A stretch of DNA of 64,000 nucleotides, taken from positions 46,500,001 through 46,564,000 of the forward strand of contig OZ296659.1 of NCBI GenBank assembly GCA_965655095.1. The letters run 5' to 3'. Shown piece after piece: positions 34,185 through 47,400 of the stretch. Numbering within the stretch: position 1 is the stretch's first letter; each line of letters begins with the position of its first letter. The position numbers and the translations under genes are program-made. Below the pieces are notes generated by a model. It searched no databases. It saw only the letters and a list, made by a program, of their open reading frames with translations, and was not told the DNA's origin. This DNA comes from Haplodiscus bocki (lineage: Eukaryota).

Positions 34185-34361
34185 AAAGGAAGTTCTCTCA
34201 AACTGCGATACCCTCACACAGAAGCCAAATATATCATTGAATGCATTGTTGTTATGCCTTATGGCCAAATTTCACGATTTCGATTTCAACAAAAGTCTTA
34301 GGATTGATCCTTGGTTGCACTGATCCTTGGTTGCACTGAATAAATAGTTTCAGTTATATAA

Positions 34362-34939
34362 TGATCTGCTGGGGAAGCTGTGGTGGTCCCCTTTGATTGA
34401 TCTTCACAAATTCAGAGGAAGTTGACTAGGAATTGGATTTTTCTCAACAGATGCTAAAGATCATTGCCGCCAGCTCCCTGCATCACTCCCTAAAGTCACT
34501 CCCACAAGCTGAATAAGACAAGTTTTCACAAATTATCTATTCTTTTCCTGGTTTAAATCTTGATCCGACCACCAACAATTTCGTTTACCCTTTTCTGACT
34601 TCTGCCCCGTTGAGAAATGTTCAGCTAATCCTCAGGCAGGATTTACTTGACAACACCTTTACCTCTCATTCGAAGAAGAGAGATATTCCTCAGACTGTTC
34701 CCCAACTTATCGAAACCCTCAAAAGTCACCAAAACCTTTTTTGTGTGGTAACTTGCCAACGTGACGGTGCCCCCTACATCTTCGAGGACCTTCTTAGAAA
34801 TTTGGCCTGTTACGTTATTGATGTCACAAAGCATATCATAAGCGTAACGGAACAACTCAACGATTCTATTATCGCTCAATATAACAATATAAACATCTTC
34901 ATAAACCTGCCGATCTTTAGCTTCGATCTCTGTCTGTAA
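34362..34939 (+). pseudogene. LINE upstream ORF0 (possible SGNH/esterase-like), disrupted
   Basis: MICWGSCGGPL* then MLKIIAASSLHHSL...IYSFPGLNLDP...LILRQDLLDNTF...CQRDGAPYIF; homologous to the ORF at 42388-42675. Confidence 0.5.
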
Positions 34940-35209
34940 TGCTTCACTACCAAACAAACATCAAACGATTCTTCAAAACTAGAGGAACGAAACGCAGGAA
35001 GACAAGTGACAGACGCGATGCAAAGAAGGCACTCGAGGCGAATCCCAAAACACCTTAAGTGGCGAATCTTGTTAGGTAGGTGTGCTTATTGAGACACTGG
35101 CTCTGAGGCCCTCCCAATAGGTTTCTCTGTACGTGTAAGTTTAGCCTTTCTGATATACCGTCTTTGAAAGGTGTGCTTATTGAGTCTCTGGCTCTGAGCC
35201 CCATCAAAA

Positions 35210-36040
35210 ATGAGTGATCCCTGGAATAGGATTGCATCTGATAACAACTGTTACCCTACCGTTGCTGAACTCCTGAACTCACCCAACAGTGACCTAACCA
35301 GTTTTCTTTCTATGGCTAAAAAGGCTACTTTGGAATGTTTACTACGTGAAACTTTGTCGCAACTGAACGATACCAAGAAACAAAATGAGCAATTGATAAC
35401 GTGCTTGGATGAAAACAAACGCTGCCTCCAACAACTTCAAAACTCCGTAACTGAAATCGGCAAAACTTCTCCGAAAATTACCTGAGACATCTGAACCTGC
35501 AGTCTGGGCTGACGTAGTGAAGAAGTCCCTTGATGAAAGAGATTATGACAAAGCGGCATCAGAAATCGTTGTGTTTTGCAATGTTGCTGATTATCCGATG
35601 ACATTCCAATTACTCAACAACTGGATCCCTTTTTGCAAACGCCCGAAATTCCTTCTTCTATAGTTAAATGTGCCAAAAGGCTTGGTGAACGCAAAGCTGG
35701 TAAAAAAACCGTCCTCTGTGCCCTCTAATCTTCGTCCCATTGAAGCCTGTTTTAACTCAGTTTTCGATAAGCGTCTCCTCGTGAGCAATGAATCCAAGTT
35801 GAAAAGTACCGCAGTCTTCGTGAAACCAAAACTGTTTTGGAAGGACCGTCTTATTGAGAAAGAGCTTCTTCATGCAAGATTTGAAATGGTAAAAAAAGTG
35901 CTGATCGTTCACTCTTCCGGATCAGAGACGTCAAATTATTCTACAATGCTTCTCTTGTCGATGTTTCTGACATTGACGAGTTCATGAGGACAATTAACAC
36001 AATCTCTGATAACTTAATTCTTAAATCTGGTCCTGAATGA
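35210..36040 (+). pseudogene. LINE ORF1 (coiled coil plus C-terminal RNA-binding region), frameshifted
   Basis: Coiled-coil-like LSQLNDTKKQNEQL; C-terminal EKELLHARFEMV...DRSLFRIRDVKLFYN matches ORF1 of the minus-strand LINE (REKLRIRNLKL); this frame ends at TGA 36038-36040. Confidence 0.7.
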
Positions 36041-38462
36041 CTAGTTAATCCAAATATATGTCTTGTAAACACTCGCGGATCAACAACTATAGCAAAGTGA
36101 TCACGCCTACTTGAGAACCTTATCACCAAACAAATTGAATTAACACTCATCACTGAGACTTGGTTGGATCACACTTTTGACGAAAATGTTGCCTCGCTGT
36201 TTAGGTTGTACACTGTAATCGGAAGACGTGACCGTTGTAATGGCCCTCACGGCGGGGTCATTGCCTTGAAGAGGGTGTCCGCTAGCATCAATTTCTCAAA
36301 ACACCGCTAGATGACTGTTTCGACTTTGCTTGTGCGTTTGTGCTAAATAGCCGGAATGTCTCACCAATACTACTGCTACTTGTCTACCTTCCCCCTTCTA
36401 GTAGTCGTTATAGTGTATCAGCAAATGAACTTTCTGCGTGCATTGATAGCCTCCTCAACTATTCTGTGTCTGAACACTCAATTTCTGTACTTCATTTTTG
36501 TGTCTTAGGTGACTTCAATCTTCCAAAATCACAGTGCAAGACGTTGAGTACTAGCGTTGATCATGAAATTCAAATCTTAGATATTCTGAACAATCAATTT
36601 CTCTCTCCAATCACTATTAACACCCCAATGTACATAGCTAATATTTTTCTGAATAATATTCTAGTAAGTGATCGTTCCCTTTCCAATCTATTATCAATCG
36701 ACTCGAGTGCCAATATCAGTGATCATTATCCTATAATTTTTGAGTGCAATGTTTCAGAACAACTGTTATTGGTGTCTAGGCCTCTGCAACACATGCGCTC
36801 GTTGAACAACTTTCGAAGCTACTGGCAACTCTTCGATTATTCCAACCACCCTAGTAGCACCGTAGAAGAATTCTACTTACACCTTCATAGTGCGGTCGCT
36901 CCTACTCTAGTCAAGAAACGAACAAAACGTATAAAATTACCATATTATTACACTTCACACACTGTATTCTGCTACAATAGACGCGAAACTCTTAAACGAC
37001 GTTGTATACGAAATCCAGCTATTAGAAACGTGACCACTCTAAACAGCTCGCAGAAAGATTTCGACGAGTCTGTAGAGTTGGACAGAATCACTTCACTTCA
37101 TTGCTCCAGCACCCACTTCATCTCTGAAAGCTTCAAACTTCTGCGCTCTCTTTCCTGCCGAACTCTTCCTGAGATAATGTTCCGCGGAGACAATTGTTTC
37201 AACTCAGCTGCTGAAATTGTAAATGGGTTCAAGGATTTCTTCGTTGAAAATTTCAAATTGCAATAATTTGATGAAGTTTTGCCTTCGACCGACTGCTCAC
37301 TTGAGCTTGATGGAGTACTTGACACCTTCTCTCCCTGTGAAATCGTCAACTTCATAAAGAATCTGAAGTCTTGTACGTCTCCCACCAACGATGGCTTCCC
37401 CACACGTCTATTGAAACTTCACTCAGAGTTATTTGGAAAACTTTTGCATCCTGTATTTTCATCAGTTGTCTTGACCAGGATTTTTCCACCAGAGAGGAAA
37501 GTGTCTCACATACTTCCGCTACATAAAGATGGTCCTAAAAATTGCATAGAGAACTGTAGACCCATCAGTCTCCTTCCGAAAGTCTCTTTGCTTTTTGAAC
37601 GCATTCTTTTCAGTTACATCTATTCAGCCATCAAAGACAAACTTCATCCGAAACAATTCGGTTTCGAAGCCAAACGAGGAGCAGTCCTGCAACGTCTCGA
37701 CTATCTTGAAACTATATATAGACAATCTTCAAGCATTCTGTTTGCTGTGTACCTTGATTACACGAAAGCCTTCAACACAAAAAACTTCTGCGCAAAGTCA
37801 GCTCTCAAATGCCTTTTCCGGTACTTAGTGGAGTACCACAAGGCTCTGTATTGCGTCCGCTTCTCATTTTACTGTTTATTAATGACCTTCCAGCAATCTT
37901 TTTAGATGCTATACCTTGGATCTTTGCCGATGATTTAAAACTTTTGTTCAATACAACTAACTTCCATGACGTCTTAGCTAGATTGCATAACTGGAACCTC
38001 TGAACTGGAATGCTAGCCAACACAGCTAAAACAAAGACTCTCAACTTTAAATCTGTCACTGGCGTTATTCTAAGTGGCAATAACTTGTTGAATGTAAATT
38101 CGCAAAGACACCTCGGAGTCGTAGTGACGTTTAACTTGAAATGGGACAACCATATTGGTATCAGGATCAGCAAAGCGCGTAAAAATTTTTTTCTGAAAAA
38201 TACTATTCCTTGGAGCACGCCTTCGAAGACAAAGTATAGCCTCCATCGCAGCATGGTCCTATCTGTCCTTCTCTATGGAGCCGTCATCTGTTATCCAAGT
38301 ATCTCTTCGTTGAGGAAAATGTAGGCCTTCCAAAAACTTTGCTACCGGTAAAATTTTGGAAAAAAGCTATATTATGAAAGAACTTCGAACACTAACAACC
38401 TGTTGCCAACTGCTTACCATATAGAGCTGGAGTCCCATTCACTTCTACTTAACACACTTTGA
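36041..38462 (+). pseudogene. LINE ORF2 endonuclease/reverse transcriptase, disrupted
   Basis: ORF pieces 36340-37266, 37279-37905, 37809-38003 and 38010-38324 carry APE and RT motifs; internal deletion after YLDYTKAFN. Confidence 0.92.
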
Positions 38463-38678: not shown

Positions 38679-41327
38679 TCATGGCGAGCAGGTTCGACTT
38701 TGACAAATGATTCGCCATGAGCACAGGTTTTCTTCACAAAAGTTGTTGACGATGAACTTCCAGTAATAATCTTGGATACCTTCTTTCACGTAGCACAGTT
38801 CTTGTAAATTTAAAGTTCTCGATAGTCTTCGGTGAATTTGAAGAGTTCTGTACCAAAAATTGTCTTTGCTTTTGCTCCTCCCTATTTTTGGTAGATAAAA
38901 CGGGGATGATGTTGTTGTTCTCAGGGAGTTTTTTCAATAGGGGGCGATGTGCTACTTCACCAGTCGAAGTTGTATTGATCAGCTACTTTTTTTAGAAGGT
39001 TAGTAAATCGTGCATTTCGATGTATAAATTATTTGGTAACAGCTTCAGTTGGGTCAAGCGGGTTTTGTAGTCTACTTGAGACGTTCTGGAACTCCATTTC
39101 GGTACTCTCTTCTGTACCAGTTCGAGTTCTTTCATGGATGTCCTGTTTGCATGCCAGACTGGAGAACAGTGTGTCAAAATTGGTACGACATACCCACAGT
39201 ACATATTTAGGCGTGAACACAACTAACTCAGTGGTGAGGTGTTCCTTTTTAGATTGAGAAAGGCTCGATAGGCTTTGTTGCATTAAGGCTTTGTTTGTTC
39301 AACCGACGATAGGTCTTCCGAAATTACGACGCCGAGGTCTCGCTCGAATGGAGATGTTTGGAGGCTTACGTTCTTCCTTCTGAATTTTTGGGAGTCACCG
39401 CCGCGGAACATCATCAAATGGCTTTTTTCAACATTGATTTCCATTTTTTTTGGTCGCACCACTGGACAAATCGATCTAAATCTTCTTGTAGTTCCATCTG
39501 GTTGGAAGACATGAACTTGGTGTCATCGTGGTGACATGATTTTGGTGTGGCAAAGTCAATGTACACCGTTGCAAGGAATTTTGTCTGAGAGTCCAGGGTT
39601 CTGTAAATTTCATCTCTGTACGCTAAGAGTTTCAAGAGGGTGGAACGCTTCGAAACAAAACCGCACTGACATGGGTCAACTTTCGGAAGAAAAATTTCAG
39701 CAATGGTTTTCTCCATCATTTTCTCCCAAACTTTGGATATGTTACAGAGGAGTGATATTGGTCTATATTTCTTTACCAGTGATCGATCCGTATCCTTAAA
39801 AATTTGAGTTACTTCCGAATTTTTCCAGAAGGTGGGAAAGCATCGTTTATTAGAGAAAGTTCTAAAGATAACGGATAGAGAATTTGCTAGAGATTCAGAA
39901 CATTTGTTGAGCATAATGTCCGGCAGATTGTCCGGTCCACAGGTTTTTTGGGGGTTGAGGTTTTGAAGTAGGTTTGTAATGTTGTCATTTGAGAAGTTTG
40001 GTTCTATCGATTGGTCTTCCAATATCGCAGGTATTTTGGTAAATTCAGCAGTACATTCATCTTCATGGTCGTTAGATTTCAAAAAAACACTACAGAAGAA
40101 AGTATTAAAAAGAACGCTCTTCTATTCGTCCGTGTTAGCTGTTGAGTTTTCATGGCAAATTTCGGCCGGTATGGGATCAAGCCGACGAATATAGCGTAGG
40201 TATCTTTGGATCGTGCTAAAGTGTCGAGATTTGAAAAAACTTTCTTCGTATAGCATGAGATCTTCGTTGATCTTTGAGGCCACCAGGTCTTCTAGACTTC
40301 TAACTTTGTTTCGTAGTGCAGGCGATGGTTCAGAATTCAATTTGCGTTGTAGATACTTCAATTTTCTGATGATGCAAGGTGTTGGCGATGTGACCCAGAT
40401 TGGGAGACTGCTTCTGTGGTTAGTACGTATGGGAATTGTTGCAAGCATGATTTCATGCAGCCACTCATACCACGTTTCCAAAAGTTTGTCGCAATTACTA
40501 TAGCAGTGTTGTGACAAGGGGTTTTCAGTCACGTACTTGTTGACCTTTTTGAAATCCACTCTTGAGTAGGAAAAGTCGTGAGTCTGGGTTGTTTTAACGG
40601 AAGGACTTTGCATATCGACGAAAATTGAGAAAGGGTCATGATCAGAGCGAAAGTGGCCATTAAGGGAGGCACTTTTGATTAAGAAGTTATTGCTAAACCA
40701 TCGAACTACTTTTTCTGGATTATTCAGCAGGCAAATTTCAAGTGAGCTGCTTGTTGTTTTCCTTAGAATTTGTTCGAAGCCGCTGTTCACGAACATTCCA
40801 GCAATGGAGTCTTCGTAGTCACACGTGCTTAAGAAACTGTTCCAATCAGTTAACGGGAGGTTGATGTCTCCAGTGACGTTGATTTCTGTTATGTAGTATT
40901 GTTGTGGAACCTTGTCAATTTCTTGCAGGTAGTGGGTAAATTTACTGCCAGCCCATCGATAAGAACTCTTTTCAGGGGGACAGTAAACCGATAGAACTAA
41001 AAGATGAACTGAACAAAAATGGCAGACAATGCTCACAACGTCTTCAAAAACGTTGAACTCGGTAATTTCTTTGCAGGGTACCAACCTGTTAACGGCGAGT
41101 CGTACGCCGCCGTGACTCGATTTCCCGGTTCGCTTAGGTTGTCGATCACGACGGAGTTTTGACCGGTTTCCATGAAGTAGGCCACTGCTCGGTATTGTGT
41201 CTACTAGCCAAGTTTCGCACAGGCTAATGATGTGGAATTGTTGCAAGGCAAGTGCATTTGATAAAGCTGTTCGTCGATTCAAATCGAGCAAACTTCTAAC
41301 ATTCCACATCAGTAGGTGTACTTGCAT
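38679..41327 (-). pseudogene. LINE ORF2 endonuclease/reverse transcriptase, disrupted
   Basis: 401-aa APE ORF (40122-41327), RT piece 39414-40082 with a deletion between IDFA and DDTK, and C-terminal pieces at 38679-39400. Confidence 0.92.
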
Positions 41328-41353
41328 TGCTTTTTGTGATTTCGGTTAGGTAG

Positions 41354-42254
41354 TCAGGCCGACGGTGCTTCAGCTCCGTTGTAAACCTCTTCCCAAATCC
41401 CTTGGTCATTTTGCATCTCAAGTTTGAGATTTCGGATACGAAGCTTCTCCCTAGGAACTCTTTGATCGATTTTCACTTCCCTCATTCGCAGTGATTCGTT
41501 TTCAGTTTTTAGTTCTTCGATTGTAAGCGCCTTCCAGAGAAACGCTGGTCCCGACAATTCCGGGTAATTCTTCAGTTCTCGTGAGGCCTTCAACAGAATT
41601 GTACGACACGCTTCGTTATCGACCTGTACTATCAGGTTTCGTGGTTTGGGACTGAGGTCTTTGAATTGGCTAACTCGTTTTGGGCTTTTGACATCGCACT
41701 TCTTTCCGGAAAGAAACTTGAAGACAGATTCTACTTTCTCCAGGTCTTTCTTGAACTCTTTGTCAGGACGAAGGCCAGACATTTCAGGAATGCCTCGTAG
41801 TCGGAGGCCTCTGGGTTCTGCAACTTTTGACTCAAATGCTTTCACTTGAACAGGCTGTTCTAGCTTCACGGCAATGTTTTCAGTTTCTTTTTTCAGAGCC
41901 ACAACATACAGATGCGTACTTGTCGCTGACGTTCCTTTTGTAATCGTCGAGTTTGTCCTGCATTGCTTGCAGTTTGTGTGTGTTTTCTTCTTCGAGGCGG
42001 TTCCTCCTCGTGGCGTAGACGTCTTGAATCAGCGTTTCGCGTTCATTTTCAGCGCACAAAGTGCAAAGGAGGAGCACGTTTCGTGTCACTTCTTGAAAAC
42101 TTTTGACAACAGAAGCTGAGAAACCAGTACATTCTGGCGTCATGTGGAGTACCGCACCACAAGACAAGCAGCAAAAGCGTTGTTTTCCAGATACTTTCTC
42201 ATCGCAAATTTTGCATGTGGTCATGCCACGTTTGCGGGGTTCTGATTGACTCAC
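41354..42254 (-). pseudogene. LINE ORF1 with N-terminal PHD-type zinc finger, one frameshift near 41890
   Basis: CKIC...CLSC...H...C...CTLC; coiled coil; GLRLRGIPE, PRNLIV and LRIRNLKL typical of CR1-group ORF1. Confidence 0.85.
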
Positions 42255-42387
42255 TTTTTGAGCTCCCAGCCACCAAGCAACGTCCGAGATAACTAAATCT
42301 CAGGAGTCACGAGGAAATCAGGAGAACAAAGTTTCGAAAGCTGTAGACTTTTCTCGGGTCCCAAGCAACGTCCGAGATAATTCAAAC

Positions 42388-42675
42388 TCAGGAGTCACGA
42401 GGAAAACAAGACGAGTTCCTTCTTGGAAATCTTTGACAATCTTCCTTTTGACAGTAAGGTGGGAATAACCCTGAGGTCGTTTTTTTGTTCTGATTGAACG
42501 AAAGACCAGGGATTACTGTTATTGTTTTCTTCAGGGTTCGCTTGGAGTTGTAGTCAAATTTTTCGATGACTCGGGAGACTGATGAGGCGCCAAGGAATTG
42601 GACAATTTGTCGTTGAGGGGAAAAGATTAGGGGGCCGCCACGGCTGCCCCAGTAATCATATTCCTGAAAAGACAC
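42388..42675 (-). pseudogene. LINE upstream ORF0 (N-terminal half), homologous to 34362-34939
   Basis: YWGSRGGPLIF...VQFLGASSVSR...ITVIPGLSFNQN. Confidence 0.5.
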
Positions 42676-42689
42676 TATTTAATAAGTTT

Positions 42690-43000: not shown

Positions 43001-44176
43001 GGATACCTGAAAAGGAATTGAGTCTTTCTCTCTCTCCACTTCGTTTTCGGAACAGGTAACACTATACCTGGTACTTCGATCAGACATCTACTGAGTTTTG
43101 ACTTTTTGAAACTGTCCATTGTCGCCTGGACTGTTTCATTTCTTTGTTATAACGGGATTCACACTACTTATCCATATCACAACGGGTTCAGAGTCGAGCA
43201 GCTTGTCTCGTTTTTTGGTAGTTACTCAACACTGTACTGATGTAAGACCATCATAAGAGAAGCTACACTGGTTAACACTTGAAAAAAGGAATAGTACAAA
43301 TTCTACCTTCATGTTTTCGTCTTTCATTTTCTACCACATGCCGTTTGCCTAGGTAAACTTTTAATCAAGAATTGTGGCTCCATTTACCCTAGTCGGTGTC
43401 TCCACTCTTGAGGTACCCAGGATTACAAACAAATTTGAAGATAGTGCTTTTCAATTATCTGGTGCAGTTCTTTGGAATGCTCTTCCGGATTCCCTAAAAT
43501 ATGCACTCTAAATGGTTTTAACAGAAAACTGAAAGTTATCTTTATTGAGTGATGGCAGCTTTGTGATGAAGAGAAAAAATTACAATCAATCAAAAACTCA
43601 ATTTTTCTCCGGTGACAATGAAAACTCTTTTTCAATTTATCTCGTAAATGATCAGGGGTCTTTTCCATTTCTTCTCCCCCCCCCCCCCCAGCGGATTCTT
43701 CCCCCCCCCCCAGTCGAAGCTGTAGCTGCTGCTACCAGTGTACATGTGTTTATTCACTGAATACGTCTTTCGCGAGTCAGTAGACAGTGCACACAATTCA
43801 CAAATCTCAAGTACCTTCCAAGAAGCTGACTGCTTGCTGAAGCTAGTTAAAATAAACAAACAGGTATTTGCAATAACTTTATTATGCACAAACTTGGAGC
43901 ATACTGCTCAGCTGTGCATATCAGCTAGGGGGGAAATAATAATTTTGTCAGTAGGGCTGGGGGAGTAAGACCCATGATCAGTTTATATTGGTGGAGCCAA
44001 AAATAAATAATTGGAGAAAAGATGTTGACAATTTTTTCCCTGCAATTGTATTTTTCTCACCCTTCTTGGTTGGGGTAATTTGTCCTAATATTTCGATAGG
44101 TAGGCCCTAAGGAATCCTGTTTTATACTGTTCGTGCAAATGATGATTTAGGTTTATTTTGCTTCAGAACTTGGTCA

Positions 44177-44459
44177 ATGGGAAAAGGTGCCAGTAAATTA
44201 CCCACAGAGAAAATGAAAGAATACTTGAGAGAAAGCTCTTTCACAGAGAATGAGCTACGGCTATGGTATAAGTATTTTATAAGAGAATGCCCAAACGGTA
44301 CGATGAATAGTGAACAGTTTCTCAACATATACAAATTGTTTCACCCCAGTGGACGTCCTGAGCAATTTGCTTCTCACGTGTTTCGAGTGTTCGATCGCAA
44401 CAAAGATGGATCGGTAGATTTCGATGATTTTCTGGGCTCAATTCATATTACTGCAAAAG
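44177..44459 (+). CDS. Neuronal calcium sensor family protein (NCS-1/neurocalcin/hippocalcin-like), coding exon 1
   Basis: MGKGASK myristoylation motif; WYKYFIRECPNG (EF1 CPxG), FASHVFRVFDRNKDGSVDF (EF2); donor AAAG|GTACT, phase 1. Confidence 0.95.
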
Positions 44460-47400
44460 GTACTTTTTCTTTTTTTTACTTGTTGCTAGAAGGTTGAGGA
44501 TTAGTTTCGGACTATGAAATATTGTTAGGCTCATTTTGCGCATTTTGCCCAACTTTTAGAGGCAAGCGGGCGAAGAAACTAAGAGACCTCTATTGTTGAC
44601 ACTATTGGCAGCTTCTTGTGTCAGTTTTGAATGAGCTAAAATTCGTTACGCTGACTTTCAAATTTCTTGCCAAAATGTTTTTTCGTACATGCCATTTCGA
44701 ATTAAATGTCAATCGTCAAATTATTCGAATTCTTAGTGAGTGTTATTAACATGCAACCAGCATAAATGAATGAAGGATGTTAAATTTTGGGCAATCATTG
44801 GAATTTTTGAGACTGTCATCCTAAAAATGGCGTCCAAGGCGTCCAAAATTGAGTCAAAAATCGCTATTTTTGGAATTTTGTAGAGTTTTTCATGCACTAC
44901 CATGCATATCATTTTCGTAGCTGCCAAGTCAAACGGATACAATAAAGATAAATAAATGTAGTGTAATGCAATGGAATTTTGCTGAGGCAATTCTTATAGT
45001 TTTTCCAGCAATTTGAATGCTGGTTTTGATGTTTATTAATGAGCCAAACATTCCCAGTCAATTTCATTCAAGACTTTGTTTCGATTTTTGAAAATTCCTG
45101 TTCAGGTATTGCTTCTCATTCTTTTGATGTAGATTTTGGTCAATACTCCAAATACGTTTTGTCTTAAACCACCTGGTCAAGTTTTCTTATTCATGGCTGA
45201 TACAACAGCTTTTTATACGGTTATTTATTTTGCCTGTAAGCGTTGCTCCAGGTTTTGTCCTAATATTGAAAAAAATTGGTCCAAAGTTAACTACATGTCA
45301 TATACTGAAGTATTAGCTTTGGTTGAGAAGAAACGAATTGGGTCTTTGAACCCAAAATACCTTGATATTTAAACACTTTAGTTGTGCTGAAAAATTTTTG
45401 AACTCTATAAGTTGTTTAATCTTACTGTTTATGGAAACGTTATCTTAAACTGAGCATGAAACAGCCGGCTCAGAAGAGAGTAACTGGAAAATTGAAATCT
45501 GTATGTTCTGAGAATAGTAACTAATCAGAGGATTGTGATCCATGCATCCAGGATTCGTGTCCGCTCTCCAAACTGCTCCCCACCACAGAAATCAAAACCT
45601 GAGGATTAGATTTATTTAATTATACATCTGCAAATGATTTCGATTCTAGTCAATTGTGCGAATGCGTTTTTTTGCTAAATTACCCGGTCGATTCTTTTCA
45701 TTCATGTCTAAAGCGGCTGCTCGCTTATTTTGGACAGTTTTTCGCAATTTTTTTTTGAATATGTAAAATTTATGGTCCAAACGTTGCCAGGAATGAATTT
45801 CCTGCCAATTTTATTCACAATTCCGACTGCCTTTTCCATTGAACTACCCTCCCAATTGTTTTCATTTACGTCCTGATCGACTTTGTGGTGTTTCATGTGA
45901 CTGGACGACTTTCCAGATTTTCCAATCTCTAATTGGTCCAAACATTGCCACAAATGCATATGAAGCCGCTTTTGGCCAAAATTCCGAAGGTTTTTTCTTC
46001 TGAACTAACGACTGAATTCTTTTCATTTAACAACTTAATCGACGACTGTTTGAATATAATTTCTTTTTCGAGATTTTTGTCTGTCCGAAAACGATTGAAA
46101 CAATGCTACCCACGCGTATAAGAGCAATTTTAGACAACCATACGGTTGCTTTTCCTACTACCCTTTCATTTTTTTGTTTAAAACCTAATCGACAGACTTT
46201 TGAATTCAAATTCATTTCAGGAAAGTTTTTTCGCGATTATGATCATATTTCTCATAATGTTGCAAGCAAAATTACTCATACCATTGATTTCTGTTTTTAG
46301 CAGGTTTCCGAATGATTTTTTCTTGAACTACCTACTCAGCTGTTTTTTACGGCCTATTCCATTGCCTCTTTTCAACTTCCTTTACCTGGCTGAGGTTCTC
46401 CAGATATCGTTTCAATTTTCAATCTTTATTGTCCAAATGTTGCTACACATGCATGTGATTTCGATTTTGATCAGTTTCCATTTGCTTCCAAAGTTTCAAG
46501 GACTACTTCGACCTTTTGTTTTCAGACAACTTAACTAGGTCCTAAAAACTTTTGCCTCACTTAATCATCTGAACATGAGGGACTTTGTACTGTGTCTTTG
46601 AAAATGCGACCTTCAGTCTCAAAAATGTAATGAACCCGTCATAAAAAGCACAACGTAGCGTTACTGCATTTTTTTTACATATTGTTGGTCTAATTTCAGC
46701 CAAACTTCGCTCGTTCCGCACAGGTTGTGCTGACTCTCCTTGAAAAATAAACTTTCGCTCAGTTAGACGTAATTCAATCAGACGTACAATTTCAAAAGTT
46801 CTTCGATGGCAGGTAGCAATTTCGTTTCGTTTTGTACAAAAAATCCAATCATACCATTTTTTGCGGGTTTCTCAGGCTGTTGTCTTGCGAATCATCTATT
46901 TATCTACGGTAATACCTTAAAGTAGCACAAAAAAGTTGATTTCGCAAAAAGCTTCCTCAAAAACTGGTGCTTTTGGGGCTTCAAAGTATGCCAAGGAGTT
47001 AGTTTGTTGTTTTCGAATTTTTCCCTTTCCTTCCCGCTTTAACCTTGCAATTAAAACCGATACGATACCGAAGCCCAATTCCAGATAGTACTGTGGAATT
47101 AGTCGAAAACGATATATCTGAAGCTTTTTGGTTGCTCAAAGTACAAAAGACATATCTAACTTAACAACTTGGGGGAATTTTTGCTTTGCGAATCTGGATT
47201 TCAGTTATCGATTAATTTAAATCTGTTAGAATAAGTGCGAAAGAAATTAGTCGGGGAATTGACCAATAAAGGCGAACATTTTCGCTAGAAAGGTCATTTA
47301 AAATGTCTTCGAATCGTCGAACATAGCTTGGTTCGCAATTTTTCGAATTTTTGCACTTTCGTCTTCCAAATTGCTTTTTTGACCATGCATCCAGCTGAAT

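Follow-up and report, generated by a model that had tools for sequence, protein, structure and literature searches.

The translation of LINE ORF2 is understood in only a handful of elements, all of which make it as a separate protein by reinitiation. Unconventional reinitiation is described for mammalian L1 ORF2 (PMC5972666), and reinitiation or translational coupling for L1 and the silkworm element SART1 (PMC5972666, PMC5009743). A 63-nt spacer precedes the ORF2 AUG in L1 and the stop overlaps the start in SART1, both giving a separate ORF2 protein (PMC5972666). The LINEs described below share with mammalian L1 a bicistronic RNA and an L1-like ORF1 fold. The only precedent for a different arrangement found in print comes from the Group 3 non-LTR retrotransposons of Paramecium tetraurelia, in which, as here, ORF1 and ORF2 are parted by a single in-frame stop; this is reported for 12 families, and readthrough was suggested from consensus sequences as an untested possibility (Guerin et al. 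2017, PMC5405496). Those elements form a separate ciliate clade, whereas the host of the present ones is probably an animal, judging by its histone genes and the genes in the window. The accessible parts of the paper describe no signal, and the three junctions inspected among the 12 are TGA-TTC, TGA-GTG and TGA-GTG, not TGA-C (PMC5405496). Neither 'stop codon' nor 'translation' appears in a survey of vertebrate CR1-group elements published in 2026 (PMC13343379), and a literature search, with subscription journals and Repbase reports outside its scope, yielded nothing on UGA-CUA readthrough in LINEs.

Outside LINEs, two readthrough motifs have been defined experimentally. UGA-CUA alone is reported to give 1.5% readthrough in human cells (PMC4132726), in agreement with the earlier note on this DNA, which had called UGA-CUA(G) a known leaky context, and CUAG supports more readthrough than CUA alone (PMC4132726, PMC3542737). 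The vertebrate genes OPRL1, OPRK1, AQP4 and MAPK10 and the type II alphavirus junctions have the same stop and the same next three bases as the LINEs studied here, likewise conserved at the nucleotide level, and in the vertebrate genes the linear signal is enough (PMC4132726, PMC3542737); the differences are that the present extension would comprise an entire retrotransposon enzyme, about 940 aa long, and that the G is variable. Most viral UGA-CUA cases, although not all, also have a 3' stem-loop from about 8 nt past the stop. The other motif, CARYYA, stimulates at UGA also (PMC4132726, PMC3542737). It characterizes type I readthrough, as in tobacco mosaic virus, and one family below has a fitting CAA-CCA; natural type I cases are mostly UAG, whereas here the stop is UGA in an animal LINE. 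Gammaretroviral gag-pol, as in murine leukemia virus, resembles what is proposed here in that a structural protein and a polymerase lie in one frame and are joined in a low-level fusion, but murine leukemia virus has UAG-G with a pseudoknot, whereas the present elements have UGA-CUA, no shared structure and no LTRs. Gammaretrovirus Gag-Pol undergoes protease processing.

An in-frame TGA-CTAG joins ORF1 and ORF2 of LINE family A

The window, the whole stretch of 64,000 nucleotides analysed, holds decayed copies of two LINE families, A and B, arranged tail to tail. Their features are as follows.

34337..35209, + strand: 5' untranslated region of family A, about 870 nt (likeness to intact copies starts at 34335-34352; ORF1 ATG at 35210)
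35210..36037, + strand: ORF1, 278 aa in intact copies, predicted coiled coil, RRM and CTD, L1-like type II (tblastn pieces; AlphaFold model)
36038..36040, + strand: single in-frame stop, TGA, separating the two ORFs and predicted to be read through (TGA in 29/30 copies and 23/23 families)
36041..36044, + strand: CTA(G) 3' context, predicted readthrough stimulator (30/30 copies; CTA in 19/23 families)
36041..38462, + strand: ORF2, APE endonuclease and reverse transcriptase (RT), without initiator Met (Pfam on an intact copy; broken here)
39548-42687, - strand: family B LINE, decayed, with PHD-like ORF1 and the same TGA-CTA junction
41351..41356, - strand: TGA-CTA junction of family B (TGA in 28/30 copies, CTA in 29/30)

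Read directly from the window, the TGA at 36038-36040 is followed by CTAGTT, and the junction is GGT CCT GAA TGA CTA GTT AAT CCA AAT ATA TGT CTT GTA AAC. The ORF1 tail RSLFRIRDVKLFYN...SGPE and the endonuclease start LVNPNICLVNTRGS share one frame, the motif I Asn lies at 36068-36070, and no in-frame ATG occurs from the ORF1 tail to the first endonuclease strand. All ATGs near the window junction are out of frame, and the one overlapping the stop (GAA TGA) encodes Met-Thr-Ser-stop only. The earlier note's observation of TGA-CTAG joining ORF1 in frame to an ORF2 without ATG is thus confirmed at 36038-36044, where the contigs of two runs (of unrecorded kind and from one study, hence not independent support) carry no variant. 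The copy itself is dead: its ORF1 matches intact ORF1 piecewise in alternating frames (tblastn), with several frameshifts; ORF2 is interrupted by a premature stop after its first 19 codons, shifts frame near 36300, has lost sequence near 37775, and enters an N stretch at its 3' end. Since the window copy is decayed, the state of the junction at the level of the family is the question.

An own-genome DNA search scored 40 family A places, spread over many contigs, of which the best 30, window copy included, were aligned. In these copies, 86-100% identical, TGA is kept in 29/30 (one TTA) and CTAG in 30/30, so the junction is not a product of decay. Seven of the 30 loci are open across all 620 downstream codons examined, five of these seven with an ORF1 of 278-283 aa, and two copies have open ORF2 frames of 943 codons. 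The first ORF2 Met in intact copies is codon 256, past the endonuclease domain (Pfam: endonuclease 111-233, RT from 507). PF14529 (Exo_endo_phos_2) and PF00078 (RVT_1) score above cut-off in families A and B; with an endonuclease followed by an RT and dispersed multiple copies with long ORFs, the elements are APE-type non-LTR retrotransposons (LINEs).

The AlphaFold model of an intact family A ORF1 has a pLDDT of 84, and its top 10 PDB matches are all human L1 ORF1p, so that by its modelled fold the protein is predicted to be of type II (coiled coil, RRM, CTD). Type II ORF1s, which may carry a PHD at the N-terminus, are present in CR1, L2, L1 and R1 elements (PMC4120745), and the type is not diagnostic of CR1/L2 because L1 and R1 have it too. 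We tentatively call the clade CR1/L2-like (Jockey superfamily); the set of 46 homologues compared contains no named clade reference. A Pfam PHD match was found in 3 of 15 ORF1s examined. In the ORF1 alignment, six families (L004, L199, L214, L202, L258, L242) are without a PHD finger and have a common 'YYPxxxEL' start; in L258 and L242 the C-terminal half is closer to the PHD-bearing families, and these sequences suggest module exchange within ORF1.

The family B endonuclease-RT is 25% identical to that of family A. The window copy of family B has a 5-nt insertion just downstream of the junction. An in-frame ATG stands at codon 8 in 13/29 family B copies, the others having ACG, ACT, GTG or AAG there.

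TGA followed by C is shared by 23 LINE families

An HMM of the endonuclease start was used to search the window, an intact copy of family A and another of family B, 70 loci from a genome search with Pfam PF14529 (the top 30, plus 40 out of the 120 further places), and 100 places that two protein searches had matched and that belong to neither A nor B. This sample favours relatives of the two families and does not amount to a census of the LINEs of this genome; the top 30 PF14529 loci, single-long-ORF elements of other groups, were uninformative on the junction. The 130 hits formed 31 clusters at 78% nucleotide identity. A junction was defined without regard to stop identity, as the nearest in-frame stop within 25 codons or fewer, supported by at least two copies or by long flanking open frames. 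Such a junction was found in 21 of the 31 clusters, and in all 21 it is TGA followed by C, the next codon being CTA in 17, CTT in two, CTG in one and CAA in one. Among the 10 excluded clusters, two are single-long-ORF elements of another group, three have TGA-CTA in a decayed copy, and three are heavily decayed singletons with TAA-ATA, TGA-GTC and TAA-TGT; when more copies were added for the remaining two clusters, TGA-CTA-G was found in 12/12 junction-retaining copies and in 13/18 copies, respectively. Combined, TGA-C is present in 23/23 families (CTA 19, CTT 2, CTG 1, CAA-CCA 1). Wherever the junction is definable, the stop sits 9-20 codons ahead of the motif I Asn, and linker lengths differ among families on both sides of it.

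The comparison of genomic copies proposed in the earlier note therefore gave a conserved TGA in place of any sense codon, an ORF2 in phase with ORF1, a family A without ATG between the stop and the first endonuclease motif, and a CTA kept across families. Of the TGA-CTA(G) it expected across families, CTA held (19/23) and the G did not, being present in only 8 of the 19 CTA families (P 0.02-0.08). The CTG directly after the stop belongs to one old family, in 7/9 stop-keeping copies (15 scored of 20 loci). Family 18, which is young (96-100% identity), has TGA-CAA-CCA in 28/30 copies and TGA-CAA-ACA in two; CAA-CCA fits CARYYA, the other known readthrough motif. This family (L109:7047-7055 (+), L291-L320) is abundant, with 95 candidates and many intact copies, and is the best test case beside the CTA families.

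The junction is conserved at the nucleotide level

Among nine near-full-length ORF2s, aligned Leu pairs use the same codon in 314/1669 cases (19%) and four-fold sites agree in 550/1987 (28%), so that synonymous sites are saturated. Even so, the post-stop codon is CTA in 9/9 full-length ORF2s, and of nine invariant Leu columns only the post-stop column has a single codon, the other eight being scrambled. CTA makes up 15% of Leu codons, and P is about 1e-11 (binomial, CTA in 17 of 20) if the families were independent, a value that overstates independence because families share ancestry. Other TGA triplets within these ORF2 sequences are followed by CTA in 16/799 cases (2%), and the natural ends of full-length ORF2s in eight families are TAA, TAG, TGA-T or TGA-A, never TGA-C. 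Around the six junction bases little information is found in 21 families (at most 0.4 bit, except 0.75 at position -2). By these sequence comparisons, UGA-C(UA) is clade-wide and under nucleotide-level selection. Position -2 is A in 14/21 families, which amino-acid bias could explain; 5' adenosines have been reported as favouring readthrough.

A folding scan of 90-nt windows in 21 families revealed no stem-loop common to the sequences downstream of the stop (in the windows closest to it, mean z ranged from -0.05 to -0.6), and families 17 and 18 had low z in one window, +30 to +120. The junctions thus have one type II feature, the UGA-CUA conserved at the nucleotide level, and differ from those of alphaviruses in the other, the extended 3' stem-loop, which was not found.

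Similar junctions in metagenome LINEs

The endonuclease start was found in 43 of 80 metagenome loci. Four of these have an open frame of at least 230 codons directly upstream in the same frame, with TGA-CTA, TGA-CAC, TGA-CTC and TGA-CTT at the junction and no Met ahead of motif I; in a fifth, also with TGA-CTA, the contig ends within the element. In eight others an ORF1 profile match (E below 1e-5) lies in another frame, and these out-of-frame ORF1s stop at TAA (six), TAG (one) and TGA-T (one). The remaining 30 loci, which lacked either an upstream frame of this kind or a confident match to ORF1, were left uncounted. TGA-C is therefore present in 4/4 in-frame vs 0/8 out-of-frame junctions (Fisher P = 0.002). 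In a quick RT tree, one of the four in-frame LINEs pairs with a family of this genome as its sister, and two others are sisters whose pair sits among out-of-frame elements (support 95), apart from the families of this genome, which group together (support 89). This suggests that the in-frame TGA-C junction may have arisen more than once. Viral contigs scanned with the full ORF2 alignment gave no match; the endonuclease-only alignment was too divergent for scans of the collection.

Two contigs of a public metagenome, L321 and L322, carry a LINE piece 96% protein-identical to a family of this genome, so the same host, or a close one, probably contributed DNA to that metagenome.

Alternative explanations of the junction

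The main rival to readthrough is AUG-independent termination-reinitiation, in which the ribosome would stop at UGA, release the ORF1 product and begin again on the following codon or close to it, making a separate ORF2 protein. Reinitiation or coupling is the route given for L1 and SART1 (PMC5972666). A fixed restart site would preserve the frame too, and near-cognate start codons lie close to the junction in many families, including the CTG directly after the stop in one family and the ATG or ACG at codon 8 in family B. However, CTA is two positions away from ATG and CAA is not a start codon, the near-cognate codons do not share a position, and in two families the stretch up to motif I contains none at all. 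In-frame ATGs between the stop and motif I occur in three families (codons 7, 8 and 10); two of the three are within three codons of the motif I Asn, so close that initiation there would truncate the first strand, and the codon-8 ATG of family B is in fewer than half of its copies. The stop-overlapping ATG of family A opens three codons only. Coupling at an AUGA stop-start of the SART1/calicivirus type was rejected, as an overlapping ATG is found in 6/21 families, out of frame with ORF2, and is absent in the rest. Moreover, reinitiation gives no reason for TGA in 23/23 families or for the swap to CARYYA, and it explains family 18 worst because there one known signal is swapped for the other known one. 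We therefore regard reinitiation as unlikely.

Three further explanations fare less well. The UGA might be removed in the RNA, either by splicing to an acceptor near CTAG or by A-to-I editing to a Trp codon, and CTAG does contain a possible 3' splice AG, and TGACTA is similar to a branch-point motif. AG is at that site in only 8/23 families, however, on which ground an acceptor at CTAG was dropped as a general mechanism; the CAA-CCA family has neither feature, and no conserved duplex was found for editing, making removal in the RNA very improbable. Still less credible is a host that generally reads UGA as sense, ambiguously or as selenocysteine, with no special signal at the junction. In the histone loci examined for TGA ends only TAA and TAG were found, the two genes seen ending one in each, so that no TGA host stop was shown; yet nine ORF2s of 863-968 codons are open in the standard code with 109 Trp, all TGG, full-length ORF2 copies in three families end in TGA, and general reassignment would leave the fixed CTA unexplained. 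A TGA-CTA kept by descent without selection deserves just as little credence. The families of this genome do cluster in the RT tree, but retention by mere descent is contradicted by the saturated synonymous sites and the eight scrambled Leu columns, unless an overlapping function (e.g. a protein-binding site) holds the site, and linker lengths vary on either side of the stop.

Predicted expression of an ORF1-ORF2 fusion

UGA readthrough, giving an ORF1-ORF2 fusion, is thus in our view quite probably programmed in this LINE and its clade. The observed basis is the shared frame, the identity of the stop, its 3' context, the nucleotide-level conservation and the fact that most families offer no AUG that could be used. 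The fusion by readthrough put forward in the earlier note gains support from sequence comparison, TGA, frame and CTA being kept and family A having no ATG before motif I. In the proposed mechanism, most ribosomes would stop at UGA and yield the ORF1 RNA-binding trimer subunit, and a near-cognate tRNA would decode UGA a few percent of the time, producing an ORF1-linker-endonuclease-RT fusion in which the variable tail after the ORF1 CTD would serve as a flexible linker. The fusion could enter ORF1 trimers via its coiled coil, which, as with Gag-Pol, would fix the enzyme-to-coat ratio and bring the enzyme to the RNA that encodes it.

More than 20 families, several of them recently active, keep two classic readthrough signals, which points to a fused enzyme. 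Programmed readthrough as such is an established form of recoding; the likely case here concerns elements of a class in which no demonstration of it was found. If the enzyme is fused, its dosage and its action on its own RNA would have a simple account, transposition would be tied to host termination fidelity, and annotations would need correction where they place the ORF2 start on an internal Met and so cut the endonuclease. The natural series CTA, CTT, CTG and CAA-CCA makes readthrough directly testable. With rather less assurance, we lean towards a wider proposal, that several animal LINE lineages independently took virus-type signals (UGA-CUA, UGA-CARYYA), that a Gag-Pol-like fusion in the ORF1 trimer would be the active enzyme, and that this may be a third, widespread route of ORF2 expression.

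Other observations

2A-like NPGP motifs were seen upstream of the endonuclease in single-long-ORF LINE families of this genome, at L068:997 and L080:997 (+) and at L070:865 (minus-strand count), and likewise in the metagenome loci L330, L386, L389, L392 and L397. 2A sequences in LINEs are already known from a review, and with the NPGP-bearing families this genome has another recoding strategy beside the leaky-stop junctions. Histone genes form a large tandem array, its unit about 4.6 kb long, at about 15.6-16.3 Mb of G000:C4 and on C37. In the window, an exon at 44111-44497 (+) encodes an EF-hand and an N-terminal MG motif, and presumably belongs to a neuronal calcium sensor-like EF-hand gene.
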